A DNA stretch of 64,000 bases from Candidatus Omnitrophota bacterium (GTDB lineage Bacteria; Omnitrophota; Gorgyraeia; Gygaellales; Profunditerraquicolaceae): the NCBI GenBank assembly GCA_022710715.1, contig JAKLGJ010000004.1:256166-320165 (forward strand), given 5' to 3'. Position 1 is the stretch's first letter, and each line of letters opens with the position of its first letter. The position numbers and the translations under genes are program-made. Of the stretch, positions 7,893-51,822 are shown piece after piece. The notes below the pieces were generated by a model that was not told the origin of the DNA, did no database searches, and saw only the letters and a list, made by a program, of their open reading frames with translations.

Positions 7893-7917
7893 CCCGGTTT
7901 TGTGGTAGAATAAGCGT

Positions 7918-10432: not shown

Positions 10433-10564
10433 TGTTCTCCTTTCCTATCTGCTTTACAACACCCCTATAACAACCCCTCGGACAAGTCAAGCTATATCAA
10501 GCCCGTTAGCCGACAAGAGGTCTCACTTGTATATTCCGGTTTTTTTGGTTTTTTGTCGGAATTT

Positions 10565-10607
10565 TTCCGACACTTTTCAGCGATTTCCGGAATGTACGCC
10601 TTAGAGG
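10565..10607 (+). promoter_or_regulatory. conserved about 43-nt phage early regulatory motif, copy 1 (TTCCGACACTTTT..TTTCCGGAATGTACGCCTTRGAGG)
   Basis: Near-identical copy at 11530-11572; both end in a GGAGG Shine-Dalgarno about 10 nt upstream of an ATG. Confidence 0.5.
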
Positions 10608-11879: not shown

Positions 11880-13361
11880 TTGGTACAACCGCATGAGATT
11901 GCGGGAAGCCAATTGCAAGGAATTAAGGAGAAGGCAGTGAGTCTTTACAGGCACCAAAAAGAAGCTGTCGAGTTTGCGGTACGCAATCGTGGGTGCTGTG
12001 CGTTTTTTCATGATCCCGGTTTGGGCAAGACACTCACGGGGCTTGAGGTGTTCCGCTATTACAGAAGCAAGATCCCGGGGCTTCGATTGTTGGTTGTCTG
12101 TCCGCTTTCCTTGGTCAACTCGGCGTGGGGCGAGGACATTAAGAGGTTTACCAATTTCACCTATGCGCCATTTAAGGAAATTAAGGGCGAGGTGCCGGAT
12201 ATCGTGGTTATCAATTACGAGTGCCTTATCTCGAAAAAGAATTTGCCGCTTGTGGAGTCGCTTATTTGGAAGCACCGCTTCATGTGCATACTCGATGAAA
12301 GTTCTCGTCTTAAAAATAACAAGAGCATCACCACAAAAACGCTTCTCGATCTGTCAGGGAATTTTAATTATCGGTTGGTCGCATCAGGAACGCCCATGCC
12401 GAATAGCGAGCTTGAGTTATGGGGGCAGATGAATTTCGTCCAGCCGGAGTTGCTTCATAAATCGTTCTACGCATTTCGCAATACCTATTTTCATTTGGAG
12501 CGCAACGGCATCATGCGGCAGGGAAGCCGGTACATGAGTAAGGACGAGATCCGAGAAATCTTCAGTCAAGGATGGAAGTACGCAATCACCGATGAGAACA
12601 GGGAATGGTTGATGAGCGAGATTAAGCCGTTCGCGCACTGGGTAAAAAAAGAGGAAGCGTTGGATCTTCCCGAGAAGATTGATGAGACCCGGGAGGTCAC
12701 GCTCTCGGCGCAGGAGCGCAAGGCTTATAAGGAAATGGAAGATTTGCTCATTACCGAGATTGACGGCGTTGAGGTAACGGCGCAAATCGCTCTCACTAAA
12801 CTCATGAAATTACGTCAGGTGACAGCCGGGTTTTTGTATTCGGCGACAGGGGCGGCGCTTCAGATCGGCAGTTCCTCAAAACTTAAAGAGCTTGAGGAGG
12901 TGTTGGAGGAGTTAGGCAGTCAGCCGGTGATTATCTGGGTGCAGTTTCACCACGAGGTAAACGCTATCCATAAACTCATCAGCGATAAGTACGGAGCGGA
13001 TCAGGTCACGACGCTTTATTCGGAAACGCCGGATCGGGACGAATCAATCAACAAATTCAAAAATAACGAGGTGCGGTATTTGATCGCTCATCCTCGGTCA
13101 GCGGCGCACGGGCTTACGTTCGTGAATTGCTCGGCGATGGTGTTTTTCAGCCTCGATTATTCGTATGAGGCGCACGCTCAGGCGAGGGATCGCATTCACA
13201 GGATCGGGCAGAACAAGAGTTGTCTATACGTGTATTTAGTCGCAAATAATTCGATTGACGGGGAGCTTTTGAAAGTTTTACAACGCAAACAGTCATTGCA
13301 GGACGTGGTCTATGGAATCGTCAGAAACAAGGCTAAAGGAAAAAGTCCTCGCAATGCTTAG
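11880..13361 (+). CDS. SNF2-family DEAD/DEAH helicase
   Basis: Walker A GLGKT, DEXH box ILDESSRLKN, helicase C-terminal motifs; TTG start per the ORF track. Confidence 0.85.
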   Translation: MVQPHEIAGSQLQGIKEKAVSLYRHQKEAVEFAVRNRGCCAFFHDPGLGKTLTGLEVFRYYRSKIPGLRLLVVCPLSLVNSAWGEDIKRFTNFTYAPFKEIKGEVPDIVVINYECLISKKNLPLVESLIWKHRFMCILDESSRLKNNKSITTKTLLDLSGNFNYRLVASGTPMPNSELELWGQMNFVQPELLHKSFYAFRNTYFHLERNGIMRQGSRYMSKDEIREIFSQGWKYAITDENREWLMSEIKPFAHWVKKEEALDLPEKIDETREVTLSAQERKAYKEMEDLLITEIDGVEVTAQIALTKLMKLRQVTAGFLYSATGAALQIGSSSKLKELEEVLEELGSQPVIIWVQFHHEVNAIHKLISDKYGADQVTTLYSETPDRDESINKFKNNEVRYLIAHPRSAAHGLTFVNCSAMVFFSLDYSYEAHAQARDRIHRIGQNKSCLYVYLVANNSIDGELLKVLQRKQSLQDVVYGIVRNKAKGKSPRNA

Positions 13362-13611
13362 GAGGGAATTTGGCGATGCGTGGGTTTACAAAACGTCGGA
13401 TAGATGGAAGGCGGGAATCCCGGACGTGCTTATCTGCAGGAAAGGACGCTTTTTTGCGGCCGAGCTTAAAGCCGGGAATAACAAGGCTACGAGAATACAG
13501 CTTTACGTTCTTGAGCAGATTAAACGTGCCGGTGGGCGTGTGGCTGTGTGTCGTAGTGTGGATCAGGTCAGGAATCTACTTACTAACGAAGGAGGTGATT
13601 TAAATGGTTAA
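13312..13611 (+). CDS. VRR-NUC domain nuclease
   Basis: PD-(D/E)xK-like core GIPDVLICRKGRFFAAELKAGNN typical of VRR-NUC; commonly paired with an SNF2 helicase in phages. Confidence 0.7.
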   Translation: MESSETRLKEKVLAMLRREFGDAWVYKTSDRWKAGIPDVLICRKGRFFAAELKAGNNKATRIQLYVLEQIKRAGGRVAVCRSVDQVRNLLTNEGGDLNG

Positions 13612-13782
13612 GGTAGGAGAGAAACTTCTCATCGCTGTCAAGGTCATCAGTATCACTGAGACCGAAAGCGGCGTCTTTTACAAGGTCGCTCCGCTGGATA
13701 AAGAGCGGCATTACGACACGATGAATATTTATGACAAGGATATTCAGTCGTGTATGGGGCAGGAAGTCAAGGGAGGTAAATA

Positions 13783-32579: not shown

Positions 32580-32966
32580 ATGATCGAGAAGTATCTCGGC
32601 ATTCCGTACCGGCACAGAGGCAGAACAATGGACGGTCTTGATTGCTGGGGGTTTCTTAAGCTGGCGTATGCGGATTTGGGAGTTTGTCTTTTTGATATCG
32701 AGGACTTGGAATACGGCAAGGTTTGGGGACTGAAAGGCAAAGATTATTTCAAGGATAATTGCGCCCATGATTGGGTTAAGGTTGCCGATCCGCAGGTGCT
32801 GGACGGTATCTTGTTTTTGAATTCAAGGGGTGTAGCGAATCATGCGGGAATCGTTTTAGGCAATAGGCGGTTTATTCATTGTTGCCGTCAGGGTGTCGTG
32901 GTATCCCGGCTTGATGATGCCTCGTGGGTTAAAAAAGTAGAAGGATTTTACAGGTTAAAAGCATGA
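32580..32966 (+). CDS. tail assembly NlpC/P60 peptidase, gpK-like
   Basis: Catalytic Cys in GLDCWGFLKLAY and His in NHAGIVL; likely start MIEKYLG at about 32580; the ORF-track extension to 32448 overlaps gpL. Confidence 0.7.
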   Translation: MIEKYLGIPYRHRGRTMDGLDCWGFLKLAYADLGVCLFDIEDLEYGKVWGLKGKDYFKDNCAHDWVKVADPQVLDGILFLNSRGVANHAGIVLGNRRFIHCCRQGVVVSRLDDASWVKKVEGFYRLKA

Positions 32967-35900
32967 TCATAATTCGTAACATAGCCAATCCGTTTAAGAC
33001 CGAGGACGCAGAAGTCCGGACGATTAAGTATTCCCGGAGCAAGTGCGTACGGGATTATCTTGAAGTGGCGGGTTTTGATTATCAAGACAAGCGGGTGATT
33101 GTTACTGGCAAACGCATTGATGATTTGTCCGTGCGGCTTGATGATGGCGACGAGATTACCGTTATTCCGGAGGTAAAGGCTCCGATTATCGCTGTCGTGT
33201 CGTGGATTATTTCCGCTGTCTGGGCGGTGGCCGTGGCGCATCCGTTCTTGTTTGCGTTCTTTGTGCTGTCGATGGGGTATTCCATTTATCAGTACATGAA
33301 CCAGCCGAGGATGCCGGATTTTAATTTGGGGTCGGCGAACGGTCTGGACGAAGGATCGCCAACATACGGCTGGGACGGCATTCGGACTATTCAAGAGGTC
33401 GGTGTTCCAGTCGCCGTGGTTTACGGAAGGCACCGGGTCGGCGGCAATATCATCAATCAGTTTTTGTGGGAGGACGGGGATAAGCATTATCTTAATGTTT
33501 TGCTCGCCCTTTGTGAGGGAGAGATTGAGTCAGCAGAGGATATCGAGTTAAACGATAATCCGATAGCTAACTTTGACGGAGTTTCGGTTATTAAGCGGTT
33601 TGGCACGAATTACCAGAGCATGATCGAAAACTTTGAGGATCTGCACAATATTTACTCGATCGGCGCAAATCTCACGCAAAACAATCCTTCTATCTACACC
33701 ATGATTGATTCTGATGTCGAGGCGTTTGAGATTCATCTGCGGCTCAACAACGGATTGTATCAGCAGAGTTCAAGTTCGGGAGATATTCAGAGTTGGAGCG
33801 TGACTTACCGGGTTGAGTATAAACTCCATACCGACAGTGTTTATATCGATCTGGGAGAGACGACAATTTCAGGGCAGTCACGCACGAGCGTGCGCAGGGT
33901 GTTCAGAAAAGACGGGCTCGCACCCGGGCAATACGACATTCGTGTCACCCGCACCAGCGAGGACGGTTCGCTTCAGCCGTTAAAGCAGGGCGACCTCACG
34001 TTGTTTCAAATCGACGAGATTAAAACGGATGATTTGTGTTATCCCAACACCGCTTTGCTTGGGTTCAAGTTGTTGGCGACTGACCAATTGAGTGGATCCA
34101 TGCCGAACATAACGGCGATCGTGGAGGGCAAAAAGGTTTCTATCCCGGATGTGCGTAACGCAGGCAATTCGGTTGACTGGGAAGATTATTACTGGGACGG
34201 AAGTAATTACCGGCTTTTTTCCGATGACACAATTCTTTCGTGGGACGGCTCAACTTATGTCTTGAAGTATTCGGCGAATCCGGTGTGGTGCCTGCGTGAT
34301 TTGGTCACGAATAAAAGATACGGCTTGGGCGAATTTATTTTAACCGACAATTTAGATAACGCTTCGCTTCTTGAGATGTCGCAGTATTGCGAGGAGCGGG
34401 TTCCTGATGGAGAGGGCGGGTATGAGAAGCGGTTTCGGATGGATGTGGTAATTGACAGCAACAATAAAGCGCTCGATGTTTTGATTCAGCTGTGCGCCAC
34501 GTTTAATGCCATGCCGGTGTATAGCGCCGGGGGGTTGACGTTTAAGATTGATAAGCCCACTATGCCCACTCAATTATTCGGCATGGGCAATATCGTCAAA
34601 GACTCATTCGCACAGAGCTGGAAAACCATGAAAGAAGTGCCGAACGTGATCGAGATTCAGTTTACCGATAAAGAGAAAAACTATCGGCAGGAGACAATCG
34701 CTTACATCGATGAAAAATCGCTGGCTTTAGGCGAGCCGATGCGTAAGAGCCAGCTTCGCTTATTTACCACCGGTGCGAGTTACGCCATACGAGCGGCACG
34801 CTACGCATTGAAAGTCGCACGCTACATTAACCGCTCAATTGTGTTTAGGGCGGGGATTGACGCTGTGGCGTGTCAGGCGGGGGATATTATTTCGATATCA
34901 CACGACGTTCCTCAGTGGGGTTTCTCAGGTAGAGTGCAGGCGGAAAGTTCAGCCACGCTTATTAAGTTAGACCGCTCGATGGTTATTGAGGACGGCAAGT
35001 CTTATAAGATTCAGGTTCGGTTTATTGATGACATTATTGAGGAACGGTTTATCACCTCGCCAGTGGGGACGCATACAGAGATTATGTGCGAGGCGTTCTC
35101 GGCTGATCCGCAGGCATTTGATGTTTACGCTATTGGCGAGACCAATAAGGTAAAGAAAGATTTTCGGGTGGTGTCGGTTCAGCGGGAAGGCAAACACGAG
35201 GTGCAGATATCGGCGCTTGAGTATAACGAGGCGGTGTATGACGATTCCGACATTATCTTGCCGCAGAATAATTACTCATCGTTATCAAGTGAAATTCCAG
35301 CGGTCAATAACTTGAGTTTGACGGAATCGCTGGTTAAGAAAACAGACGGTACGATTGAGAACGCAATTGATGTGTGGTTTGACCGTCCGGCGTATGTGGA
35401 TCATTACGTCAAGTCCTACGCCAAGGCGAAGATTTACATAAGCGATGATAACGGGCAGAGCTGGCGAGCAAGAGGCGAGACTACCGGCACGCAGTTTCGC
35501 ATCATCGGTGATATTGTTGACGGTCATACCTACAAGGTCAAGGTTACGTCGGTTGATTCCATGAATGAGGAGAGTTCGCTGGCCATGGCTCCGGAGAGTG
35601 AAATCACGGTTGTGGGTAAGTCAGCGCCGCCATCGGATGTCTCGTCGTTTTTGGTTAACCGAAACAGGGATTTGCTTTATTTCGGCTGGACACCGATTAC
35701 GGATGTGGATGCGTGGGGGTATGAGATCAGGCGTGGTCTTAATTGGGACAGCGGCGAGTTTATCACGCTTCAGCAGGGCTCGCATTATCTGACTAAGGAA
35801 GTCAAGCAGGGTGTTGGGCAGAGTTATTGGATTAAAGCGATAGACACGTCAGGCAATTATTCCATGAACGCAAAAGAGTCGGTTGTGACGATTACCGAGA

Positions 35901-36583
35901 TTCCGTTCAGGAATATGGTCGCCGAGTATCAAGAACAACCTTTGTGGGAAGGCGCAAAAGTTAACGTTGAAAAGAATGCCGATTCGATTGTGATTACGGA
36001 CGGCGTTATGTCGGGGACGTATACCACGCCGGTCAGGGATTTCGGGTATGTGGCGAGCGTTTATATCGGCATAGACGTTGTTGTCGCCACTTCATTGGGT
36101 CGCAGGTTTAACAGCGACGGAGTAACGAAATTTAACGACAGCCTAACGTACCGGTTTACCGGACAGGAAACTTTGAGGGCGACGAGGTTTCGGATACGGA
36201 CATCGGAAGATAACGTTACATGGCGGGATTGGGAAACCTATCAGCCCGGGGATTATTACTGTCGGTACTTTCAGATCGAGTTGACGCTATCTCGGGAGAA
36301 CTTGGGCGATGAGATCACTTGCTCAACGTTTCAGTATTTCGGCGATTTGCCGGACGTTGATGACAGCGGCAATGACACGGTTGTTTCAGCTGTTGATGGC
36401 AAGGAAGTGTTTTTCGTTAAAACGTATCATGAGGAGCCGAGCGTCCACATAGAGATAAGAAGCGGTAACGGGATTTACTCGAAGTTCGTGGATAAAAGTA
36501 CAACAGGTTTCAAGGTTAAGTTATACGACGCACAAGGCGTGGCGCAGGCAGGCTTGTTTGATTGGCACAGCCACGGGATTTAG
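32963..36583 (+). CDS. host specificity / central tail fibre protein J
   Basis: 1206 aa; follows gpK as in lambda; fibronectin-III-like segments. Confidence 0.85.
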   Translation: MIIIRNIANPFKTEDAEVRTIKYSRSKCVRDYLEVAGFDYQDKRVIVTGKRIDDLSVRLDDGDEITVIPEVKAPIIAVVSWIISAVWAVAVAHPFLFAFFVLSMGYSIYQYMNQPRMPDFNLGSANGLDEGSPTYGWDGIRTIQEVGVPVAVVYGRHRVGGNIINQFLWEDGDKHYLNVLLALCEGEIESAEDIELNDNPIANFDGVSVIKRFGTNYQSMIENFEDLHNIYSIGANLTQNNPSIYTMIDSDVEAFEIHLRLNNGLYQQSSSSGDIQSWSVTYRVEYKLHTDSVYIDLGETTISGQSRTSVRRVFRKDGLAPGQYDIRVTRTSEDGSLQPLKQGDLTLFQIDEIKTDDLCYPNTALLGFKLLATDQLSGSMPNITAIVEGKKVSIPDVRNAGNSVDWEDYYWDGSNYRLFSDDTILSWDGSTYVLKYSANPVWCLRDLVTNKRYGLGEFILTDNLDNASLLEMSQYCEERVPDGEGGYEKRFRMDVVIDSNNKALDVLIQLCATFNAMPVYSAGGLTFKIDKPTMPTQLFGMGNIVKDSFAQSWKTMKEVPNVIEIQFTDKEKNYRQETIAYIDEKSLALGEPMRKSQLRLFTTGASYAIRAARYALKVARYINRSIVFRAGIDAVACQAGDIISISHDVPQWGFSGRVQAESSATLIKLDRSMVIEDGKSYKIQVRFIDDIIEERFITSPVGTHTEIMCEAFSADPQAFDVYAIGETNKVKKDFRVVSVQREGKHEVQISALEYNEAVYDDSDIILPQNNYSSLSSEIPAVNNLSLTESLVKKTDGTIENAIDVWFDRPAYVDHYVKSYAKAKIYISDDNGQSWRARGETTGTQFRIIGDIVDGHTYKVKVTSVDSMNEESSLAMAPESEITVVGKSAPPSDVSSFLVNRNRDLLYFGWTPITDVDAWGYEIRRGLNWDSGEFITLQQGSHYLTKEVKQGVGQSYWIKAIDTSGNYSMNAKESVVTITEIPFRNMVAEYQEQPLWEGAKVNVEKNADSIVITDGVMSGTYTTPVRDFGYVASVYIGIDVVVATSLGRRFNSDGVTKFNDSLTYRFTGQETLRATRFRIRTSEDNVTWRDWETYQPGDYYCRYFQIELTLSRENLGDEITCSTFQYFGDLPDVDDSGNDTVVSAVDGKEVFFVKTYHEEPSVHIEIRSGNGIYSKFVDKSTTGFKVKLYDAQGVAQAGLFDWHSHGI

Positions 36584-36813: not shown

Positions 36814-37081
36814 ATTGATTTGTTGCAAATGCAAGAAGGAGATCGCCGATGATATGGCGTATGTGTCGGTCAGGGGAGATATTATCCTGCGTATGCCAAA
36901 AAGAAAACCTATTGTTTTTACCTGTTCTGAACAGGCGATGAATTACGCACAGCAGATGGCCGTGCATGATGTTTGCTGGATTCAAATGCTACGAGAGCAA
37001 GGGGTTGAGCTTTACGATCTCAATGAGGTCGCTGAGTCGTATCAAAAGAGGGAGGTAGGCGATGGCTTGGGACAAGACTAA
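36806..37081 (+). CDS. hypothetical phage protein with CxxC pair
   Basis: 91 aa; CCKCKK...C. Confidence 0.3.
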   Translation: MDKLICCKCKKEIADDMAYVSVRGDIILRMPKRKPIVFTCSEQAMNYAQQMAVHDVCWIQMLREQGVELYDLNEVAESYQKREVGDGLGQD

Positions 37082-37553
37082 ACCAGAAAACGACATGCTT
37101 TTGATTAACTTCCCGCCAGCCTGCAGGGCTAATTGGGAGGCGCTGGAATTGTTAACGGATCCATTGTTGCAAATAACTAATGAGAAGGTTGCCCCGGGAG
37201 CGGGTATTGAGGACACGAAACTTGCGCAGATAACCTCGCTCAATAAGGTGCATGGTTCGGCGATTACGGGTTTGGCGAGTGTTCCTTCAGCGGCAGGGGT
37301 TTTACCAACAGAAAATTCGCCCAACAAGTTGAAGGCGGATGTCAGCGATACTACGCCGGAGTATTTGGACGGTCTGATTGATACGGCGGTGTTTCAGGTT
37401 TCAGCGAGCGATCAGTTGCAGATAAAAGATGGCGGAGTGTCGACAGTGAAACTTGAGAACGGCGCCGCCTCACCCGGGAATAACAAGTATTACGGAACGA
37501 ACGCATCAGGCACAAAAGGATTTTTTGATAAGACGGCGGTTTACGCCTCGTAA
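37062..37553 (+). CDS. tail fibre protein (putative)
   Basis: 163 aa Gly/Ala/Thr-rich, downstream of gpJ where side-fibre genes sit. Confidence 0.45.
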   Translation: MAWDKTKPENDMLLINFPPACRANWEALELLTDPLLQITNEKVAPGAGIEDTKLAQITSLNKVHGSAITGLASVPSAAGVLPTENSPNKLKADVSDTTPEYLDGLIDTAVFQVSASDQLQIKDGGVSTVKLENGAASPGNNKYYGTNASGTKGFFDKTAVYAS

Positions 37554-37561
37554 GGAGAACT

Positions 37562-38287
37562 ATGGCTCATTTAATGCCGCCAAAACAATGCTCATCGAAC
37601 ATGCCAGCGTGGACGGATCCGGCGCTTTCGGATTTATCAACGAAAGTCCGAAAGGTTCATATTGACGAGTTGCGGTCATTCTTGAACTCTGAGTTTGTGC
37701 GGCGTGGTTTTTCGCAGTCGTCCTATACGGACCCGGCTATCACGGCGTTGGTTACGGAGATCAGGAAGGTTCACGTGGATGAGCTAAGGACAGAACTTGC
37801 GGCGTGCAAGTCCGGCAGGGGGACGTCTGGATATTGTCCGCAGGACAGTTCCGGTTGTATGGACTTCACAGATCCTACGATTACGGCGCTCTCAACAGAG
37901 GTGCGAGGCATTCACTTTCGGCAGATGATGCAGAAGGTGCAAGCATTAATGATGGGGTGCATTTGTGAGACCGAGCAATGCCAGTATTGCGCAGATTGCG
38001 GATATCACTATACGTCGTGCTCATATGCTGGTGTGGCTTGCGATGACCATAAATATTCGGAATGCCAGTATTCAATAAATCATTATTGGAACTGCGCCAG
38101 TATAAATTTGCCGTCTAGCGCAGAGCATCCTTACAAATCAGCGAACCCGCCGGTGGCGTGGGATGGATATGTGCCGTGGGATTGGTGCGTGTATACGCCG
38201 CCGGGCTCAAATTGGGGATCGTGCGAGTATGCGGGCGGGCATAATCATTCGGCGTGGAATTGTAAATGTAACCCTTATTCGTGGTGA
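37562..38287 (+). CDS. repeat-containing Cys/Trp/Tyr/His-rich protein; candidate substrate of the downstream radical-SAM maturases
   Basis: Three about 33-aa repeats ([WYF]TDPxx[ST]xLxTx[VI]RxxHxxELR) at aa 17-130; the C-terminal about 110 aa holds about 16 Cys plus many Tyr/Trp/His (CICETEQCQYCADCGYHYTSCSY...WNCKCNPYSW). Confidence 0.6.
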   Translation: MAHLMPPKQCSSNMPAWTDPALSDLSTKVRKVHIDELRSFLNSEFVRRGFSQSSYTDPAITALVTEIRKVHVDELRTELAACKSGRGTSGYCPQDSSGCMDFTDPTITALSTEVRGIHFRQMMQKVQALMMGCICETEQCQYCADCGYHYTSCSYAGVACDDHKYSECQYSINHYWNCASINLPSSAEHPYKSANPPVAWDGYVPWDWCVYTPPGSNWGSCEYAGGHNHSAWNCKCNPYSW

Positions 38288-38688
38288 TAACTATGCTTGA
38301 AGATCAAGAAAAAGCGGACAACGCTTCATTCAAGGCGGCTCTTTTGGAAAACGAGAACGCAGTGGACGAGCTTATTCATTTCAGTAAGAGCAACCTTGAT
38401 GGTTTAACCGTCCAGTGCTTCACGCATAAACGGTTTATGAGCGTTCAGGCTTTCGTGGATGTTTTGTGTCAGGTGTACCAAGAGCTTGGCGTTCAAGGTG
38501 AGAATGGCAATATCTCAAACTTTGTATTATTTGTTGCCGGAAAGCATAGGGATAACATTTACGCCTCACACGTGGGTGATCTTACCGATCAACATCGGCA
38601 GGTGTTTTCAGAAAGACTCGGGATGGATATTGTTGAGATCGAGGCGGGTCTTAGCAAATTGATTTGGAGGATTGATGGCGGTATTTGA
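38281..38688 (+). CDS. hypothetical protein (possible maturase partner/chaperone)
   Basis: 135 aa, overlaps the neighbouring genes at both ends. Confidence 0.35.
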   Translation: MVITMLEDQEKADNASFKAALLENENAVDELIHFSKSNLDGLTVQCFTHKRFMSVQAFVDVLCQVYQELGVQGENGNISNFVLFVAGKHRDNIYASHVGDLTDQHRQVFSERLGMDIVEIEAGLSKLIWRIDGGI

Positions 38689-39892
38689 ACTTAAGAACAG
38701 CAAGGCGGTTGGTGACCTGCCGTTACAGTGCAGGGATGTTATCAAACGGTATAAAGATGAGGGGATGTTTGATATCGACTCGATAACGGACGGCAAGCAG
38801 GAATACACCACGGTCTATTTTCTTATGACGCAGGATTGCAATCTGCGGTGCGCATATTGTTATCAGCCCAAAGAGTTCAGGCAAAAGGGTACCGGTATCA
38901 CGCAGGATGTTATTGATTCAACGATGGACTGGGTTTCCCGGACGTTCGATGAGCGCAAGATTAAGTTCAGTATCTTTGGCGGTGAGCCGTTCTTGAATTT
39001 CCCGATGGTTCAATATCTTTGCGATACCTATTGCATGTATCGTTACGTTGTCACCACGAATGGTCTTGTGCTTTTGGAGAATCAGGCTGTCAGGGCATGG
39101 GTGTTGAGGCATAAGTATCATTTGAATTTAAGCGTCAGTATATCGGCGTTACGCAGTGTTCTCGGTGATGATTATTTGGATAAAGCTCAGGCGGTGCTTG
39201 ATTTGGTTAAAGCAAACGGCGGGGATGTGCATTATGTTGTTGATGACCCGGAACGTCCGGGAATTTATGAGGAGATTATTCGGTTATATGAATACGGCGT
39301 GCCGATCGTGCGAGTATCATCTGCCCGGCATTGGGATATGGTTAGGGATAAGAATGAGCAGTTCAAGGATTTATTCCGGCGCATAGCGGATTACGTTTAT
39401 TTCGGCGGCCAGCCAAAGTTTGGCAGGAGCCAGTGGGATATAGCGTTAAAGAATAACATTTACCGCAAGATGAAAGGCATGCCGCTCAAGGACGTGCCGC
39501 CGACATTCTGCGGGTGCGGATATCTTTATCTTGCTGTTAACAACAAAGGCGAGATTTATCCCTGCGACTTTTTCGCCAATTATCCGGAGTTCAAGATTGG
39601 CGATGTGCGAAGCGGGTTTAATGATACGGCGTTCTTTTTCAAGAAGATGGGCGAGTGGATTGATGAGCTTTACGAGCATTGCCGTGAGTGCGAGGTTTGT
39701 TTTGACGGTGATATCAGGTGTTGTCCAAGAGCGATGTGTTTGGCAGAGAATTACACCGTCACCGGCAATCCGTTAAAGCCAGCGCCGAATCATTGCTGGG
39801 CGAATCGGATTGAGACAGCGACGTATGAGTATATCGCAAGGAAAGCGATCGAGACCGGCGTTGATAGGTTTTACTACAAGGGGCGGGCATGA
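38672..39892 (+). CDS. radical SAM / SPASM-domain maturase 1
   Basis: CX3CX2C (CNLRCAYC) plus C-terminal auxiliary Cys clusters (CGCGY..PCDFF, CRECEVCFDGDIRCCPRAMC). Confidence 0.85.
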   Translation: MMAVFELKNSKAVGDLPLQCRDVIKRYKDEGMFDIDSITDGKQEYTTVYFLMTQDCNLRCAYCYQPKEFRQKGTGITQDVIDSTMDWVSRTFDERKIKFSIFGGEPFLNFPMVQYLCDTYCMYRYVVTTNGLVLLENQAVRAWVLRHKYHLNLSVSISALRSVLGDDYLDKAQAVLDLVKANGGDVHYVVDDPERPGIYEEIIRLYEYGVPIVRVSSARHWDMVRDKNEQFKDLFRRIADYVYFGGQPKFGRSQWDIALKNNIYRKMKGMPLKDVPPTFCGCGYLYLAVNNKGEIYPCDFFANYPEFKIGDVRSGFNDTAFFFKKMGEWIDELYEHCRECEVCFDGDIRCCPRAMCLAENYTVTGNPLKPAPNHCWANRIETATYEYIARKAIETGVDRFYYKGRA

Positions 39893-40974
39893 AGATTCCG
39901 GTTTATAAATCGGTGTACCTGTATTTGACGCATGCTTGCAACGCCAATTGCTCGTTTTGCTATCGCAGGGGATTGTTTGAGCGCAACAAGATGTCAACGC
40001 TTGGGCCTGTGAAGATGTCAAAACAGACAGCAGATGATATTCTCGATTTCTGTTTTTCGGTGCTCGAGCTGGCGCCTAAGTTCACTATTTATTTTTGGGG
40101 TGGTGAGCCTACTGTTAATTTTGAGGTTATCCAGCATGTGATGGAGAGGTATCCGCAGATGCTCTTTCATATGAACACCAACGGAGCGTTGGTCAATGAG
40201 CGTATGTATGAGTTTTTCTCAAAGCACCGCAATATCGGGATCACGTGGTCGTTTGGCAACTGTTATGAGAAATACGGCGGGCCTCAGGCTAAGGCGCAGG
40301 TGGAAGGGTGGATGCTGAAGCTGGTCAGAGAGAACCCGAATCACAACGTGAACTTCATGGTTGTGGAATATGGGAAGCTCAAAGATGACTTTGATTTTAT
40401 CGCTAAGAACATCACTCGCAATATCACGATTGACCTCGCCACAAGGCATGATCACAGCCAAGAGGATTTGGAGAGGTTCGCCGATCAGTATTTCGAGTTG
40501 CTCATTGAGCATGAGCGAGATGCTGAAATGTTTCAAACTTTAAACCCTGCGCTTCATAGCAACGCTTATGTGCGGGAGTTCGGATTAAAAGCTCAGGTCA
40601 GGGAGTTTCACTTCTGCAGGACGGGGCTTGAGCGGCTTTTTATTGATACCGAGGGCGGTATTTGGCAATGCGACAACATGTATATCTGCAGGCATAACCG
40701 GCTAGGGTCGGTTTATGACGGGATTGATTATTCAAAGTTAGATTACGTTTGGGAGATAGATGCAGATCGGGAGCAGTTTCTTGGTAGGTTCTGTGAGAAG
40801 TGTGAGCTGTATAAGCGGTGCCCTCGGAATAAATGTTTGGGGCTTAATCTTGAGCATATGGGCGATATGTTTAACCCGGAGCCGGGTTATTGCGCCATGA
40901 ACAAGGTTTTGGCGAAGGTCATTGATAAATATATCCAATTGGAAAAGGAAAAGAAGGAGGCGGTTAATGTCTAA
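39889..40974 (+). CDS. radical SAM / SPASM-twitch maturase 2
   Basis: CNANCSFC; C-terminal CRTG..WQCDNMYIC..CEKCELYKRCPRNKC. Confidence 0.85.
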   Translation: MKIPVYKSVYLYLTHACNANCSFCYRRGLFERNKMSTLGPVKMSKQTADDILDFCFSVLELAPKFTIYFWGGEPTVNFEVIQHVMERYPQMLFHMNTNGALVNERMYEFFSKHRNIGITWSFGNCYEKYGGPQAKAQVEGWMLKLVRENPNHNVNFMVVEYGKLKDDFDFIAKNITRNITIDLATRHDHSQEDLERFADQYFELLIEHERDAEMFQTLNPALHSNAYVREFGLKAQVREFHFCRTGLERLFIDTEGGIWQCDNMYICRHNRLGSVYDGIDYSKLDYVWEIDADREQFLGRFCEKCELYKRCPRNKCLGLNLEHMGDMFNPEPGYCAMNKVLAKVIDKYIQLEKEKKEAVNV

Positions 40975-42148
40975 TGAGGAAGTGGTCGGCGGTAAGACCA
41001 AAGATGAAATTAAAAGCATAGATTTGTTTGTTACCGAGCAGTGCAATATGAACTGCGATTATTGTTTTCACCCAAAGGCCGAGGCGGTGCTTTCGGTTGA
41101 GCAGGGTAGAAAGATACTTGATCGGATGAAAGAATTAAGCCCGGGGGCGTTGCAGGTCACGTTCTTTGGCGGTGAGCCGCTACTTTATCCGCAGGCTGTG
41201 ATTGAGCTTGCTCAATACGCCCGGGAGTTGTGGCCGCCGGATAAAGAGGGACGACATACATCCACGTTTTCCATTTCTACTAACGGCATGTTTTTCGATG
41301 AGGGCGTGTTCAAGAAGCTCACAGAGTTGGGAATGGCTATTCAGGTCAGCTGTGACGGTGATGAGATCACGCATACCGAATATCGGCATGGCGACTATAA
41401 GCGGACTATTGAAAACATAAGAAAGATTTTAGCGATAAAGCCGGACATGAGTGTGCGCATGACGTTTACGCCCAAGACGGTCGGGAGGCTGGCGATCAAC
41501 GTGCAGTATCTGCACGAGCTTGGGATTACGAAGATCATGCACCACGCTGTCATAGAGGAGGATTGGACGGATGAAGCGGTAGATCAATACCGTTATCAGC
41601 TGGCGCAGGTTTACCATTACAGGCGGTATTGCAAACGTCAAGGGTTGCCGCTTGAGATAGCGTTTATCGATAAGCCGCTTAAAATCGTGAATGACGAGAC
41701 GCCGCCGGAGAAGGAATATTGTCAAGCGGGTAAAACGTATTTGGCGATACTGGATAACGGTGACGTTTATCCCTGCCATCGAGCGGCCAGCGCAAGGATA
41801 TTCAAGCTCGGCAATATCTTTCAAGAGCGGCCGTTTATCCGGGGCATCTTTCTTAATATCGATAAGGAATACACCGGGTGTTGGAAGAATTGCCCGCACG
41901 CTCGCACATGCCATAGTTGCGTGATCACGCACTATAAGGTTAATCAGGAACTCACGGTCCCGGTCACCAAGTATTGCAGGATATGCGCAGTCGAGAGTGA
42001 GCAGGCGTTAGGATTCTTGCCGGTTGAGCTTGCGGACAGGCGTGAGCGTATGCTGTATAAGGTCGGGCAGGTTTTGGTGGATGTCGCTAAGCAGAACGAG
42101 GAAATATTGGAAGCGTTGAAAAAGGAAAAGACTTATGCAGAACGGTAA
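40967..42148 (+). CDS. radical SAM / SPASM-domain maturase 3
   Basis: CNMNCDYC; C-terminal CQAG..YPCHRAA..CWKNCPHARTCHSC..CRIC; start MSNEEVV after SD AAGGAGG, 8-nt overlap with maturase 2. Confidence 0.85.
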   Translation: MSNEEVVGGKTKDEIKSIDLFVTEQCNMNCDYCFHPKAEAVLSVEQGRKILDRMKELSPGALQVTFFGGEPLLYPQAVIELAQYARELWPPDKEGRHTSTFSISTNGMFFDEGVFKKLTELGMAIQVSCDGDEITHTEYRHGDYKRTIENIRKILAIKPDMSVRMTFTPKTVGRLAINVQYLHELGITKIMHHAVIEEDWTDEAVDQYRYQLAQVYHYRRYCKRQGLPLEIAFIDKPLKIVNDETPPEKEYCQAGKTYLAILDNGDVYPCHRAASARIFKLGNIFQERPFIRGIFLNIDKEYTGCWKNCPHARTCHSCVITHYKVNQELTVPVTKYCRICAVESEQALGFLPVELADRRERMLYKVGQVLVDVAKQNEEILEALKKEKTYAER

Positions 42149-42401
42149 CTGGACAAAATATATCACGCCGGTGTTGGTCACGATCGCCTTGTTTATGCTC
42201 GGGTCTATCATGGCACAGGTGAGCCGGGTTGATGAGAAGTTGTTTCATCATTTGGCGAACGACGAGATTCATATGCCACGGAGCCTTTATGTGTCGAAGG
42301 CGGAGTTTGATATTCAGAGCCGGTTTATCGAGAAAGAAAACGACCGGATTATTAAGGCGATAGACGAACTTAAGAACGATCTCAAGGCGTGGAAAAAGTG
42401 A
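42135..42401 (+). CDS. small single-TM protein (holin-like?)
   Basis: 88 aa, one TM helix, charged C-terminus. Confidence 0.35.
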   Translation: MQNGNWTKYITPVLVTIALFMLGSIMAQVSRVDEKLFHHLANDEIHMPRSLYVSKAEFDIQSRFIEKENDRIIKAIDELKNDLKAWKK

Positions 42402-42402
42402 G

Positions 42403-42738
42403 GTGTATATGGCTGATGGTGAGAAATTTAGTTTGTTGAAGTTCTTGGGAAGTTTCGCTCAGGTATTGCCGTGGGTGAAGACTTTGCGGTATGCGGCGGG
42501 CATAGCATTGGTTGGTTTTGTTGGGCTCACGATATATCGTGCCTTTTTCATGCCAACTCAAACTACCAAACAGGAGACGCATATCATCGCTCAGTCCGGC
42601 GCTCAGGTGACGGTGGATCAGAAAAAGCAGGAGAAGTCGGGAATCGAGGTTAGTCCTTTCGTGGAAGGCTACGGATTCGCTGAATCTGATAACCGCAAGG
42701 GCGTGGGTGGTAAGGCTGGCGTGCGGGTAGAATTTTAG
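42403..42738 (+). CDS. small membrane-anchored protein
   Basis: 111 aa, one TM segment. Confidence 0.35.
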   Translation: MYMADGEKFSLLKFLGSFAQVLPWVKTLRYAAGIALVGFVGLTIYRAFFMPTQTTKQETHIIAQSGAQVTVDQKKQEKSGIEVSPFVEGYGFAESDNRKGVGGKAGVRVEF

Positions 42739-42801
42739 AAGAAATGCCTTGCCAACTATTAAACGTTATGGCCTTATACCCCTCGAAAGGAGGGGATTTT
42801 T

Positions 42802-43742: not shown

Positions 43743-45362
43743 GTGTATATAATGAAGACATTGGCTTCGGATAACTTATTCTCAACATCAATAGAGGTTG
43801 AGTATACAAGAAATACAAGCGTTGAATATCGACGTTCCAAAGGACAATTTTTTACGCCTTTTGATATTGCAGAATTTATGGCTGAGTGGATCGTTGAAGA
43901 CAGGCTTGGTCAGAAACTTCGAATACTGGATCCTGCCTGTGGTTTCGGAGTCTTTGAAAGGGCAATCGCCAAAGTATATAAAGGAGATACCAGCAATTTA
44001 TTATTTGATTTATGGGAGATAGACGAAAAGATACTATGCGAATTGCGAATGATTGTTTCTGATTTAGACGTCAAGGCAGATTTTTATCATGAAGATTTTT
44101 TGTCAAATGGTGAGTGGGATAAATATTATGATGGAATTATAGCCAACCCCCCTTATTACAAACATCACTATATTGATAATAAACAGAAAATTTTTGAAAG
44201 GGTATGTGTAAAATCAAATTATATTTTTAGCATTCAGACAAATATTTACTGTTGGTTTTTAATTAAATCATTACAGCTTTTGAAAGAAGGGGGAAGGTTA
44301 GCTTTTATTGTTCCTAGCGAGTTCTTGAATTCAAATTATGGGGAAAAAATAAAATCTTATTTGATTCAGTCAGGATTGATATGCCATTTGATCAATGTTC
44401 ATTTCAAGGAGAATGTTTTTGAAGACGCATTAACCACTTCTGTTATAATTCTTGCAGAAAGAAATGTTCAAATACATAAGACAATAAATTTTTATACTGT
44501 ACACGACGCCGCTTATCTAACAAACCTTTCTTCATTTTTAAAAGAGCAAAAGCATAAAGCATTTGTTACAAAGAATCTTGACCCAAAAATCAAATGGCGA
44601 AATTATTTTAATGGGTATAAAGATCATTTTGAAAACAGCGATAAGGTTGTACCGTTTGTTACGTTTGGGCGTTTTTCTCGAGGCATAGCTACTGGTTCAA
44701 ATAATTATTTTACTTTATCTAAGTTAGAGGTTGAGAAGCATAGGATTCCTTCAGAGTGTCTGTTGTCATGTATAACAAAATCATCTTTTGCCAAAAGTCG
44801 GCGTTTCGGCATTGAGGATTTCCAATCATTGGTTATTGAGGGGAAGAAGGTTTTTCTTTTTGATGGGAATCGAGCAAAAACCGAATCCGTAGCGGCATAT
44901 CTCAAGTTAGGTGTAAACGAAGGAGTTGATCAGAAATTCTTAACAAAATGTCGTGATCCTTGGTATAGTCTAGAAAAAAGAGAATGTTCGAAAATATGGG
45001 TTTCTGTTTTTGGACGTAATGGATTAAAGTTTATATGGAATGAAAGTGATTGTCTTAATTTGACGTGTTTCCATGCGTTTTCGACAACACAGATCGGTGA
45101 AGAATATTTGGGGATAATCTATCTTTATTTAAATACATCTATCGCACATTATTTTCTTGAGAAGGAAAAAAGGGAATATGGGAATGGTTTGGAAAAATAT
45201 GAGCCCAATGATATCAATAAAACCATGATCCCTGATTTTAGAAAATTAGATAAGACGCAGAAGGCTAAGTTACAAGATTTGTTTCAAAAACTTATTTTAG
45301 GTAAGGACGAAAAGAAAGTTGTGGATGAAGCAGATAGAATTATTCGTGGGCTGATCGAATAG
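43743..45362 (+). CDS. N6-adenine DNA methyltransferase, Eco57I-like gamma class
   Basis: FFTPFDIAEFM, motif I ILDPACGFG, motif IV NPPY (GIIANPPYY); 539 aa. Confidence 0.85.
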   Translation: MYIMKTLASDNLFSTSIEVEYTRNTSVEYRRSKGQFFTPFDIAEFMAEWIVEDRLGQKLRILDPACGFGVFERAIAKVYKGDTSNLLFDLWEIDEKILCELRMIVSDLDVKADFYHEDFLSNGEWDKYYDGIIANPPYYKHHYIDNKQKIFERVCVKSNYIFSIQTNIYCWFLIKSLQLLKEGGRLAFIVPSEFLNSNYGEKIKSYLIQSGLICHLINVHFKENVFEDALTTSVIILAERNVQIHKTINFYTVHDAAYLTNLSSFLKEQKHKAFVTKNLDPKIKWRNYFNGYKDHFENSDKVVPFVTFGRFSRGIATGSNNYFTLSKLEVEKHRIPSECLLSCITKSSFAKSRRFGIEDFQSLVIEGKKVFLFDGNRAKTESVAAYLKLGVNEGVDQKFLTKCRDPWYSLEKRECSKIWVSVFGRNGLKFIWNESDCLNLTCFHAFSTTQIGEEYLGIIYLYLNTSIAHYFLEKEKREYGNGLEKYEPNDINKTMIPDFRKLDKTQKAKLQDLFQKLILGKDEKKVVDEADRIIRGLIE

Positions 45363-46242
45363 CCTCAAGAAAATTTGGTTTTATTTCAGCGTGTCCACCT
45401 TTAAAGCGCACATAGTGCAATAATCTCCCACCCTCTAGTTCTTTAGTTTTACCTTCCAAATCGGGCAGTGTAATCTTTTCAGATATTTGTATTCCTTGAT
45501 TTAAGTAAATATGAATCGTTTCTTTAAACTGATTCTTGGGATTTTTTTCTATAGCGAACGCCGGAAGACCATTAAAAACCCCGTAGATTTTTTTATTTTT
45601 AATTCCTTTTATTGTAATATCTGAGCTTCCTAGTATTTCAAGAATTTTAGTAAAGGGTATTAAATAAATTGTATCGAAAAAAACTTGTACATAATAATGG
45701 GGAACACCATATGTTTTGATCCATTTCAATACAACGAGCAAGTCCTCGACCTTTGGAGTAAAGCTTAAGAACGGACGGTCATCTTTTGGGGAAAACTTTT
45801 TAGTTAAATAGGCACTCGAACGAATTTCCATGCCAGCCAAAGATTCCGGAACAATTATTTTTAGGTCATCTAATGATAATTGGCTGATATCTTTTCCCCA
45901 CTGAGATTTGTATAATTGAGGCGTGTATAGTAGAAGGTCGGGGCGTTTTCCGATGGTGTCTAGTTCGTTTTGATAGGATAAATAAAACGTTTTAAAGCCG
46001 GGATCACCTGCAATAATTTTATCCGATTTTCCATATTTAATTGGGATAAACTTTTCTGGAAAAGTTTTTTCAATGCTGGAAAATAGTAAATTTTCAGCCC
46101 AATCGCCCTGCTCGCTATGGGTTAGAAAATCAGAAAATGCTTGAGTAGGGGCAGTTCCCTTTTTTCTGTTGATATTAAGGTTAATAATATCAGTTGAAAT
46201 CTTTTCGCTTAATTCCTTTATTGATTCTTGGTAGCCATTCAT
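45340..46242 (-). CDS. candidate restriction endonuclease (convergent partner of the methyltransferase)
   Basis: 300 aa, low-GC codon usage, tail-to-tail overlap with the methyltransferase gene; no family recognised. Confidence 0.4.
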   Translation of the reverse strand: MNGYQESIKELSEKISTDIINLNINRKKGTAPTQAFSDFLTHSEQGDWAENLLFSSIEKTFPEKFIPIKYGKSDKIIAGDPGFKTFYLSYQNELDTIGKRPDLLLYTPQLYKSQWGKDISQLSLDDLKIIVPESLAGMEIRSSAYLTKKFSPKDDRPFLSFTPKVEDLLVVLKWIKTYGVPHYYVQVFFDTIYLIPFTKILEILGSSDITIKGIKNKKIYGVFNGLPAFAIEKNPKNQFKETIHIYLNQGIQISEKITLPDLEGKTKELEGGRLLHYVRFKGGHAEIKPNFLEAIRSAHE

Positions 46243-49697: not shown

Positions 49698-50533
49698 GCA
49701 AGGCAGTCATTAGTCGATATTTATCTCCTACTACATACGAAGCCGTGCGGAATGATTTTGTTTTCTTGATTGATAAGATTAAAGAGTCGGGTTTTGAATA
49801 CGGACTGCAGATTCGAGATGATTATTTGAATCTATATTATAAAGGTAACAGCATAGGGAAAATATCCTATAAAACTGGTCAAAAAGTTTATGAGGTAAAA
49901 ATACACCGCAAGTTTGTGGATGATTCAATTATTAAGCGTTTTTCGCCGTCGGTTGTTAAGGACTACGCTGTTTTCGTCATTCCCAGCAAGCAACTGCATC
50001 CGCTTTTTAGTTCAAAAAACTTATTGTCTATGGGGCAGAGGGTGAAGGCTGTCCAATTCCAAGAAGAAATTGTCTTTGAGCAAATGCTTTTGACTGACAA
50101 CGCTAACAGGGACGATTTAATCATTATAGATAGGCAAGTTGTTGATCGGGATCATGACACTAAAATGGATCTTCTGGCGCTTAAGCAAAAAGAGCCGGGC
50201 AAGTATCAGTTTTGTGTCATTGAGGTCAAACTTGGCAACAATCAGGAGTTGAAAGAGGACGTTTTTCAACAGCTCAAAGGATACGGTGAACGCATTACAA
50301 GAAATTTCCCTCAGTATAAAAAAAGTTACGAATTGAACTTCGCTCAAAAGCAGGGGCTTGGACTTTTGCCGGGCAGTTTGAAAATTGAAATTGTAGAAGG
50401 TGTGTTCGGCATAGTAGTGGTAGGAGGATATTCCGGTCTTGCCGAGAAAAGCATTTCTGAGCTTAAGGCAAAGCATCCCGATATAAGGGTGTTGCATATA
50501 AAAAATGAAATCAGGTTTGATAATTTGATATGA
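49694..50533 (+). CDS. PD-(D/E)xK (RecB-like) nuclease-fold protein
   Basis: D...D-x13-ExK arrangement (DTKMDLLAL...VIEVKLG) followed by QQLKGY (QxxxY-like). Confidence 0.5.
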   Translation: MSKAVISRYLSPTTYEAVRNDFVFLIDKIKESGFEYGLQIRDDYLNLYYKGNSIGKISYKTGQKVYEVKIHRKFVDDSIIKRFSPSVVKDYAVFVIPSKQLHPLFSSKNLLSMGQRVKAVQFQEEIVFEQMLLTDNANRDDLIIIDRQVVDRDHDTKMDLLALKQKEPGKYQFCVIEVKLGNNQELKEDVFQQLKGYGERITRNFPQYKKSYELNFAQKQGLGLLPGSLKIEIVEGVFGIVVVGGYSGLAEKSISELKAKHPDIRVLHIKNEIRFDNLI

Positions 50534-51822
50534 AGCTAATTATTCATAGAGGTACAGCTGAAATTGGTGGGACCTGTGTAGAGGTCTTTACGGAGAAAAG
50601 CCGGATCGTGATCGATTTCGGACTGCCGCTTGTTAATGCCAAAAAAGAACCATTTGATTCAAAGGTTTTGATAGGTAAATCTCCGGAAGAGTTGAGGGGA
50701 TTAAAAATCCTTCCTAGCGTGAGCGGCCTCTATAAAGATGAGGAGAGGTCGGTTGACGCCATTCTCATATCGCATTCTCACATGGATCACTACGGATTGC
50801 TTCGCTATGTGCACCCCGGCATACCTATATATATGAGCGAGGGTGCCAAGACGTTGGTTGAGGTGTCGGATATATTTACGCCTCACAAAACCGGCAAAAT
50901 AAATACCAAAATCATAGATAAACGAAAGAAGTTAACCATTGGGGATTTTGAAATCTTCCCTTATCTGGTAGATCACTCCGCTTTTGATGCTCTTGCTTTT
51001 ATGATTAAAGCCGATGGGAAGAAGATTTTTTACTCGGGAGATTTCAGGGGGCATGGGAGAAAAAGCGAGCTTTATAGGCGCATGGTGTCTAAGCCGCCGA
51101 AAGATATCGATTGTTTGCTTTTAGAAGGCTCGATGATCGGTCGGGGAGAGCAATTATTCAAAGATGAGCAGGCGGTGCAAGCTCGTATGGAAAAAGTCTT
51201 AAAGGCGACCCCCAATATAAAGTTTTTATTTGCCTCATCTCAGAACATTGACCGAATCGTTTCGGCGTATAAGGCTTGTCTTAAAACAAACCATGTATTC
51301 GTGATTGATATTTACACTGCGTATATTCTTGATTGTCTGAGGAAGGTATCAAAAAATATCCCGCAGTTTAATTGGAGGAATATTAGGGTTAAGTTTATGA
51401 AAAGCCATGCGGATTCATTGGCGCAGAACGCTTCAGTTAAACTTCTTTATGCTTATAACTCCCGTAAGATTGAGATTGATGAGATTAATGCGATCAAGGA
51501 TAAGGTCTTGATGCTTGCACGGGATAATTCTATTTTCCCAATACTGGTGAAGAATATTAAGGGCATAGAGGGAGCGAAGATTATCTATTCAATGTGGGAA
51601 GGATATTTGACGGATAAATTTAAGGATTTTGTCGCTCAGAAAGGGTTGGATATTGAAACCGTTCATACGAGCGGTCATGCCACCATACAGGATTTAAAGG
51701 TTTTTGCCGAAGCGTTAAATCCGGGCAAGTTGATTCCGATTCACACTTTTGAGTCTGGGCAATACCCGAAACTTTTTAGGAACGTACAAATATTACAGGA
51801 TCGGGAAGTATTTAACGTTTAA
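50530..51822 (+). CDS. metallo-beta-lactamase / beta-CASP family nuclease
   Basis: MBL motif ILISHSHMDHYG, additional D/H motifs, C-terminal beta-CASP-like HTSGHA; 430 aa. Confidence 0.8.
   Translation: MKLIIHRGTAEIGGTCVEVFTEKSRIVIDFGLPLVNAKKEPFDSKVLIGKSPEELRGLKILPSVSGLYKDEERSVDAILISHSHMDHYGLLRYVHPGIPIYMSEGAKTLVEVSDIFTPHKTGKINTKIIDKRKKLTIGDFEIFPYLVDHSAFDALAFMIKADGKKIFYSGDFRGHGRKSELYRRMVSKPPKDIDCLLLEGSMIGRGEQLFKDEQAVQARMEKVLKATPNIKFLFASSQNIDRIVSAYKACLKTNHVFVIDIYTAYILDCLRKVSKNIPQFNWRNIRVKFMKSHADSLAQNASVKLLYAYNSRKIEIDEINAIKDKVLMLARDNSIFPILVKNIKGIEGAKIIYSMWEGYLTDKFKDFVAQKGLDIETVHTSGHATIQDLKVFAEALNPGKLIPIHTFESGQYPKLFRNVQILQDREVFNV

Follow-up and report, generated by a model that had tools for sequence, protein, structure and literature searches.

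A cysteine-rich candidate tail-fibre tip encoded with three radical-SAM/SPASM enzymes in an Omnitrophota prophage

Why does a prophage carry, behind its tail genes, three radical S-adenosylmethionine (rSAM) enzymes that resemble peptide maturases, next to a protein unusually rich in Cys? The question is raised by a stretch of 64,000 nucleotides from Candidatus Omnitrophota bacterium (assembly GCA_022710715.1, contig JAKLGJ010000004.1, positions 256,166 to 320,165), the whole of which we call the window. It contains a lambda-like siphovirus prophage with genes for a serine recombinase, primase, TerL, portal, major head protein, tape measure, M/L/K-like proteins and J. The protein in question, here called the target protein, is encoded by an open reading frame (ORF) of 241 aa at 37562-38287, whose ATG stands 5 nt behind the strong Shine-Dalgarno sequence AGGAG. 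This ORF encloses in frame the segment 37610-38284 that had been singled out in a preliminary description of the DNA, and its translation reproduces exactly the sequences quoted there. Our answer, to which we assign a probability of roughly 0.6, is that the tail fibre of this Omnitrophota prophage has two pieces, that the protein is its distal tip, and that the protein's Cys-rich knob is cross-linked by the rSAM enzymes. The coordinates of all features are collected in Table 1.

The target protein consists of an N-terminal half with three repeats and a C-terminal half rich in Cys and aromatic residues. Beginning at residues 17, 55 and 102, the repeats share a conserved core of about 25 aa, [WFY]TDxT[IL]TAxSTx[IV][RK]xxH[IV]xELR. 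Over these 25 aa the ungapped identities were 15 for R1/R2, 11 for R2/R3 and 9 for R1/R3; when the target protein was shuffled 200 times, the best-matching pair had no more than 9 identities (mean 6.8). All three repeats are kept in every homologue of the target. The three conserved repeats of the preliminary description are thus real, but with spacings of 38 and 47 aa they are not the head-to-tail 33-mers it had described. Each of them has one invariant His that opens its helix, inside H-[IV]-x-E-L-R. Altogether the protein has 17 Cys: 13 fall within the C-terminal 112 aa, and C10, C82, C92 and C99 make up the rest. The count of about 16 Cys given earlier for the last 110 aa or so is actually that of the whole quoted span, and the 7 Trp and the GGHNHSAW motif were found as described. 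Neither scans of Pfam, PHROG and NCBIfam nor a PDB sequence-profile search of either half gave a match to the target protein, Foldseek searches of PDB and BFVD with the full model returned only noise, and GenBank phages held no match to the cassette DNA or to the protein. A precomputed PF27469 tag on protein P0007 was not reproducible with the local Pfam and was dropped.

We then asked in what company such proteins occur. In a scan with one genome per species the family was located in Candidatus Omnitrophota metagenome-assembled genomes (MAGs). Ca. Velamenicoccus archaeovorus LiM, whose genome is complete (NZ_CP019384.1), has a member at 87% identity, 99% identity to the target is reached on one MAG contig, and the whole cassette is syntenic in these relatives; IMG/VR added 40 further loci. 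With the whole N-terminal domain as the profile, the search returned about 198 protein clusters. Proteins with this domain at the N-terminus invariably continue into a Cys-rich tail (9-18 Cys), and the tails fall into three classes: a knob of about 110 aa as in the window (class A), a knob of 85-90 aa (class B) and a run of CxC repeats of about 30 aa (class C). The class C relatives are 145-151 aa long, with a nearly pure CxC tail behind the three-repeat domain, for example CLCDCDGHCACHCDACGCDCDWCSSHCDPH. When 1.84 billion representative proteins were searched exhaustively by profile, only 13 had the Cys-rich domain, and all full-length proteins among them had the three-repeat domain in front.

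Co-occurrence with rSAM genes was counted over those fetched loci that extend 4.2 kb or more downstream. Three rSAMs were present in 34 loci, namely class A together with three class C loci, and every class-A locus had orthologues of all three enzymes of the window, r1, r2 and r3. One locus, of class B, had two rSAMs, and the two rSAM-free loci encode Cys-free proteins. Class B (L004, L025) keeps the three repeats and has two rSAMs with a methylase-like gene. The three enzymes of class C are not the three lineages of class A, and one of them is B12-dependent; at L005 and L006 it is B12-binding. The class C loci L005 (7001-11884) and L007 (161-4215) are Baseplate_J-type tail modules with three rSAMs. 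By our reading of identity groups, the class-A loci span about 8 sequence lineages. The backbones that carry the cassette are unrelated, being lambda-like in the window, a 107-kb phage (L001), a base_V/PAAR/gp25 baseplate set (L002) and Baseplate_J types (L003, L005), and the gene order within the cassette is variable (it differs in L003). This constant company of class A and r1-r3 across unrelated backbones supports the proposal of the preliminary description that the protein is a substrate, and it makes the protein the best candidate substrate of r1-r3.

The three downstream SPASM paralogues reported before were indeed present, as three rSAM/SPASM genes directly 3' in the cassette. Each of r1, r2 and r3 has a CxxxCxxC motif and a SPASM-type C-terminal region with 7 Cys. 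In r3 the CxxxCxxC motif is at residue 41 (Radical_SAM 64 bits, SPASM 25 bits), and r2 has a CX2CX5CX4C SPASM motif at residue 302. The Pfam SPASM model scored r3 above its gathering score (24.9 vs 21.5) and r1 below it, and did not detect r2; CX2CX5CX3-4C motifs are readable in r1 and r2, while r3 has only CX17C and a Cys cluster. The mutual identity of the three is only 19-23%, so the paralogues are ancient rather than recent. By contrast, orthologues of r1 are 64% (L001), 45% (L003) and 39% (L002) identical, those of r2 61% (L001), 38% (L002) and 29% (L003), and those of r3 32-57% (L001-L005, L007, L009 and L025). With paralogues at about 20% and orthologues at 29-64%, the three enzymes appear to hold three distinct, maintained functions. 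The best NCBIfam model for all of them is the PapB family (NF047865), with 108 bits for r1, 101 for r2 and 169 for r3 at a cut-off of 340. SCIFF, CcpM and QhpD follow, the SCIFF maturase model giving 106 bits on r3 and the QhpD model 52-69 bits on r1-r3 (cut-off 453). A PqqD-like recognition element (RRE) of peptides that are ribosomally synthesized and then post-translationally modified (RiPPs) was found by Pfam and NCBIfam neither in r1-r3 nor in the 135-aa ORF that follows the target; the 55, 16 and 40 aa ahead of CxxxCxxC in r1, r2 and r3 leave no room for such a domain. The best of the weak r3 matches among GenBank phages, L011 (MT835702.1, labelled 'Bacteriophage sp.'), was dropped as a bacterial SCIFF-maturase locus. 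It has a 468-aa SCIFF-type maturase beside secDF, recJ and an adenine phosphoribosyltransferase-like gene, and is probably a contamination of the virome set.

What kind of protein would these enzymes act on? The surroundings of the cassette point to a tail fibre. The cassette lies in the tail module by tip or baseplate genes, on one strand and in one operon. In lambda the side-fibre genes stand directly after J, which is the position of the cassette in the window; in other loci it is preceded by Baseplate_J, by the base_V/PAAR/gp25 set, or by a tape-measure gene and unannotated tail-module genes. The 163-aa shaft protein encoded just upstream is 81-98% conserved in sister Omnitrophota prophages, and its homologues have the first ~156 aa in common, followed by Gp10_C (P0196), BppL_N (P0194) or a CXXX-repeat Cys tail (P0155, P0160). 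One orthologue of the target protein, P0134, whose locus again has three rSAMs, is composed of three repeats, the Cys knob and a Peptidase_S74 domain (E=9e-14, above the gathering score), and the C-terminus of the window protein, ...CKCNPYSW, is the point where S74 starts in P0134. Peptidase_S74 is the autocleaving intramolecular chaperone of endosialidases and fibres. In the sister prophage L026, which has the same tail genes, a shaft with 84% identity carries, fused to it without anything between, a Cys tail of 40 aa in CXXX repeats, CSGCSWTCLSSCTGSCNSGCTGTCQGGCGGSCDGC. This gene is followed (7001-10574) by one for a 263-aa protein without assignment and then by two rSAMs; for one of these the PapB model gives 157 bits and the CXXX-repeat maturase model 148. 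With this fusion beside the class-A design, Cys-rich endings served by rSAMs recur on what look like fibre proteins, in at least two independent architectures. The known fibre families enter through relatives, S74 in P0134 and Gp10_C and BppL_N on the shaft family, and the window protein itself matched none; its repeats had no match to known fibre repeat families in Pfam, PHROG, PDB sequences, Foldseek-PDB or BFVD. As an alternative to a maturase substrate, the preliminary description had considered a tail fibre with a stabilised knob. The fibre part of that alternative agrees with our results, but the repeats match no fibre repeat family that is known, and class A never lacks the maturases. 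Taken together, the position after J and the shaft gene, S74 in P0134 and the shaft-Cys-tail fusion in L026 make the distal tip of a tail fibre the most likely identity of the 241-aa protein.

The same cassette could also be read as cargo that the phage carries, RiPP-like or bacteriocin-like, in which the three-repeat domain would be a large leader of the Nif11/NHLP type and the Cys core would be modified, cleaved and released at lysis, outside the virion. A constant N-terminal domain in front of very different Cys-rich tails (110, 85-90 and about 30 aa of CxC), all served by the r3 lineage, is what one might see in such cargo; the enzymes do resemble RiPP maturases, and moron genes also sit after tail genes. 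Yet the cassette has no conserved protease, exporter or immunity gene (the window cassette and L001-L009 encode neither a protease nor an exporter), and no GG/GA-type cleavage motif separates the two domains. Moreover, the S74 chaperone on P0134, the Cys tail set directly on the fibre shaft in L026 and the fibre position of the cassette in unrelated tail types all point to a fibre rather than to a released product. We therefore consider released cargo unlikely.

The distal-tip identity leaves the question of how the knob is held together. Its conservation was examined by column counts over 53 sequences. Eleven Cys (C133, C135, C140, C143, C146, C153, C160, C168, C178, C234 and C236) form a conserved scaffold and, with C10 and C92 of the N-terminal half, bring the near-invariant Cys to 13, an odd number. 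Among the Cys of the knob stand the invariant acidic residues E136, E138 and D145. Entropy is lowest at residues 131-150 and 231-241, and the loops at 151-200 and 221-230 are rich in indels. AlphaFold2 (AF2) was confident in the N-terminal domain and did not fold the knob, which was left with a predicted local distance difference test (pLDDT) score of 30-60 and little regular secondary structure. Across classes A, B and C the tails share only their start, C-x-C-[DEN]-x-[DEN]-x-C, directly after helix 3. Since r3 is the sole enzyme lineage found in all three classes, and this start is the only tail sequence common to them, r3 probably acts there.

Could the knob instead be stabilised by metal, with its Cys and His binding Zn or Fe-S and the rSAMs acting otherwise or as cluster or assembly chaperones? 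Lambda gpL binds a [4Fe-4S] cluster, and T4 fibre tips bind Fe. In the target protein, a CxCx4CxxCxxC motif and a terminal CxC are accompanied by conserved H163, H189 and H229 and by the invariant His of the repeats (H33, H71 and H118), and three equivalent His on a pseudo-threefold axis could make a metal site; the failure of AF2 to fold the knob is also expected of a metal-dependent fold. Metal sites, on the other hand, need no rSAM, whereas here three distinct enzymes resembling SPASM peptide maturases go strictly with Cys-rich tails and are absent from Cys-free family members, and the invariant Asp/Glu beside Cys are the pattern of ranthipeptides and QhpC. On balance a metal-stabilised knob seems doubtful, and we rank it behind cargo.

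The three-repeat domain was modelled with confidence by AF2 (predicted template modelling score, pTM, 0.77) as a compact, pseudo-threefold arrangement of beta-alpha repeats. In this model the three N-terminal repeats are one globular domain and not three leaders, and their number is a property of the fold. All members of the domain family with fully read sequences have three repeats. In many members the domain is C-terminal, after fn3, Big, Calx-beta, He_PIG or Glucodextran_B domains and signal peptides. The three loci of this type that were examined (L008, L023 and L024) are all without rSAM and are cellular or plasmid-like; at L023 (7001-7675 and neighbours) the secreted-type three-repeat gene adjoins giant RHS/YD-repeat proteins. 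The linker insert between R2 and R3 has C92 in 53/53 and D95 in 51/53 family sequences, and an insert with YCPxD is missing from the rSAM-free C-terminal type. Because this insert is specific to rSAM-associated versions, the domain may well join in maturase recognition, or be modified itself, as a whole and not repeat by repeat. The match of three repeats to three rSAMs is not a rule, since class B has three repeats and two rSAMs. That each repeat is the recognition or docking element of one maturase, as the preliminary description had suggested, is therefore improbable: three rSAMs do accompany three repeats in all 34 class-A and class-C loci with enough flank, and recognition must use something other than an RRE in maturases with 16-55 aa ahead of the rSAM core, but the repeats are parts of one globular domain in the model, they occur with no rSAM (L008, L023, L024) or two (L004, L025), and the class C enzymes are not the same three lineages, one being B12-dependent.

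To judge which chemistry r1-r3 might perform, we compared the system with the closest known ones. PapB acts on peptides in which Cys are interleaved with Asp/Glu, and invariant Asp/Glu beside Cys are the ranthipeptide/QhpC pattern (PapB, QhpD). The ranthipeptides (PapA/PapB freyrasin; SCIFF/CteB) share with the window an rSAM/SPASM gene beside a Cys-rich substrate, the best-scoring model and the Cys/acidic interleaving. They differ in that r1-r3 reach 101-169 bits against a cut-off of 340, three different enzymes go with one substrate, this substrate is a two-domain protein of 241 aa instead of a peptide of about 45 aa, and the window system is encoded in a phage tail module, without RRE, protease or exporter. 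QhpC, the gamma subunit of quinohemoprotein amine dehydrogenase, is a protein subunit of about 80-110 aa with little secondary structure, knotted by Cys-Asp/Glu thioethers that a SPASM enzyme, QhpD, installs. The window has a like pair of a protein domain with little secondary structure and SPASM enzymes, which the QhpD model scores at 52-69 bits. Unlike here, QhpC has a cleaved leader and is periplasmic; the substrates are unrelated in a PDB profile search, the window has no context for a cysteine tryptophylquinone (CTQ) cofactor, and the scores are far under 453. The likeness to QhpC would thus be an analogy of mechanism only. The best-supported mechanism is QhpC-like knotting of a small protein domain, with all chemical details inferred. 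CXXX-repeat peptide/TIGR04115 maturase systems resemble the Cys tail of L026 and its maturase at 148 bits, although that tail is fused to a fibre shaft, 148 bits is under the cut-off of 350, and the Cys pattern of the window is different. Among Peptidase_S74 fibre and tailspike proteins (endosialidase, T5 pb1), P0134 is the link, carrying S74 directly after the Cys knob; the window protein is without S74 and has a novel Cys-rich domain instead of a beta-helix or triple-beta-helix stalk. The BARA domain of Vps30/Beclin-1, with three beta-alpha repeats in pseudo-threefold arrangement, is also among the closest known systems. Finally, the tail of Agrobacterium phage Milano is covalently stabilised by a disulfide network (PMC10811340). 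It is like the proposed fibre tip in being a phage tail stabilised covalently via cysteines, but its disulfides are spontaneous and oxic, while dedicated radical enzymes are proposed here, in phages of anaerobes. Full-text literature searches on rSAM/SPASM with phages or tail fibres, and on Ca. Velamenicoccus, gave no description of such a system. Overall, known kinds cover both the enzymes and the notion of a Cys-rich substrate, but not the substrate family, the three-repeat domain or the location in virion fibre modules.

The enzymatically cross-linked fibre tip that we propose would work as follows. The three-repeat bundle would be a constant adaptor, probably docked on the 163-aa shaft, and possibly also a constant handle for the maturases. 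The knob would provide a scaffold of about 11 Cys with interleaved invariant Glu/Asp and indel-rich loops between them. Co-transcribed and translationally coupled with the fibre genes, r1-r3 would act in the anoxic cytoplasm, where they would most likely install intramolecular thioethers from Cys to Asp, Glu or Asn of the ranthipeptide/QhpC type; the three enzymes would be non-redundant, each making a subset of the thioethers, and an additional site may be the CxxD of the R2-R3 linker. Disulfides are not an option in an anaerobe's cytoplasm. The expected product is a covalently knotted, disulfide-independent rigid knob on the virion, which would display its variable loops at the fibre end and may bind a receptor.

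Several points weigh against this proposal. The rSAM scores are far under every curated cut-off, and the chemistry could instead be cyclophane C-C links, epimerisation or others. The CxxCxxC-type spacing of Cys could suit a metal or Fe-S site equally. Conservation is higher in the knob than in the adaptor (mean column entropy 1.39 vs 1.60), which is unusual for a receptor-binding tip. The upstream shaft partner is not conserved between phage backbones, so docking on the shaft is a conjecture. Besides, the S74 fusion implies a homotrimer, which is awkward with a monomeric pseudo-threefold adaptor, and no structural neighbour among viral or solved structures backs a fibre role for either domain.

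The remaining genes around the cassette complete the picture of the operon. TerL, portal, major head protein, tape-measure and M/L/K-like genes lie upstream of J. From 37553 to 42401 start and stop codons overlap, and no promoter-like site was found on the + strand between 36400 and 43800. The 135-aa ORF occurs only in Omnitrophota-type prophages, where its identity is 33-95% against 58-99% for the target and 64-95% for the rSAMs. It had no family match in Pfam, PHROG or NCBIfam and no homologue in L001-L009; with no family match and no conservation beyond one prophage lineage, it was rejected as a stand-alone RRE or chaperone. The 88- and 111-aa ORFs that close the operon had no PHROG match and are candidate lysis proteins by position. 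In L013, L014 and L016 (~12560-13640) an extra insertion of about 1 kb, which the window does not have, lies between r3 and the 88-aa ORF. Directly after the fibre/rSAM operon comes a convergent restriction-modification pair (43743-46242), whose genes overlap by 23 nt; in the sister prophage L026 a type I HsdM/HsdS stands at this position. The large serine recombinase is probably the prophage integrase.

Table 1. Features of the window, with positions counted from its first nucleotide
Feature	Position	Strand	Remarks
Large serine recombinase	8693-10432	-	Left side of window
Tail tip/central fibre protein J	32963..36583	+	phrog_31, E=6e-160; Pfam FNIII-A_GpJ, Phage-tail_3
Fibre shaft/anchor module	37062..37553	+	163 aa; N-terminal module of a modular receptor-binding protein, here lacking a distal domain of its own
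Target ORF	37562..38287	+	Candidate tail-fibre tip protein and rSAM substrate, 241 aa; 44 homologous clusters
Three-repeat adaptor domain	37610..37954	+	One helix per repeat
R1	37610-37708	+	Residues 17-49
Invariant His H33	37658-37660	+	One per repeat
R2	37724-37822	+	Residues 55-87
Invariant His H71	37772-37774	+	One per repeat
R2-R3 linker insert	37823..37864	+	Invariant Y91-C92-P93-x-D95 (CxxD/N); rSAM-associated domain versions only
R3	37865-37954	+	Residues 102-131
Invariant His H118	37913-37915	+	One per repeat
Cys/aromatic-rich knob	37955..38284	+	Residues 132-241
Most conserved knob stretch CICExEQCQYCADCGY	37958-38005	+	
Most conserved knob stretch WNCKCNPYSW	38255-38284	+	
135-aa ORF	38281..38688	+	Lineage-specific, fast-evolving; outside the conserved core cassette
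r1, rSAM/SPASM maturase	38672..39892	+	406 aa; Radical_SAM, Fer4_12, SPASM; CxxxCxxC at residue 56
r2, rSAM/SPASM maturase	39889..40974	+	361 aa; Radical_SAM; CxxxCxxC at residue 17
r3, rSAM/SPASM maturase	40922..42148	+	408 aa from TTG; later ATG at ~40967 possible
Two small ORFs	42135..42738	+	88 and 111 aa; hydrophobic N-terminal segments; close the operon; conserved in sister prophages
Best intrinsic-terminator-like hairpin	42779..42795	+	6-bp stem, 5 GC pairs, T-run; ends the tail-fibre/rSAM operon
N6-adenine methylase, Eco57I type	43743-45362	+	
AccI-family endonuclease	45340-46242	-	
Metallo-beta-lactamase/beta-CASP-type nuclease-like gene	50530-51822	+	Right of the restriction-modification pair

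Beyond the window, these loci raise the wider and more tentative possibility, to which we give slightly less than even odds, that phages of anaerobes use RiPP chemistry to make part of the organelle by which they recognise the host, with a tip that is a ribosomal mini-protein, thioether-knotted inside the infected cell by three (or two) dedicated rSAMs. The 110-aa knob, the 30-aa CxC tail and the CXXX tail fused to the shaft would then be swappable tips, and the three-repeat domain would serve as both adaptor and handle. If the fibre tip is indeed cross-linked in this way, it would be the first enzyme-cross-linked virion protein that relies on neither disulfide nor isopeptide bonds, and a new class of substrate for SPASM enzymes; it would also provide a scaffold open to engineering that is compact and genetically encoded, is knotted by enzymes and has variable loops. 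Beyond secreted natural products, radical-SAM peptide chemistry would then also reach the structural proteins of virus particles, and some of the many unexplained phage radical-SAM genes (phrog_1802) would gain a role. For phages of strict anaerobes, this would explain how receptor-binding tips can be covalently stabilised without disulfides.

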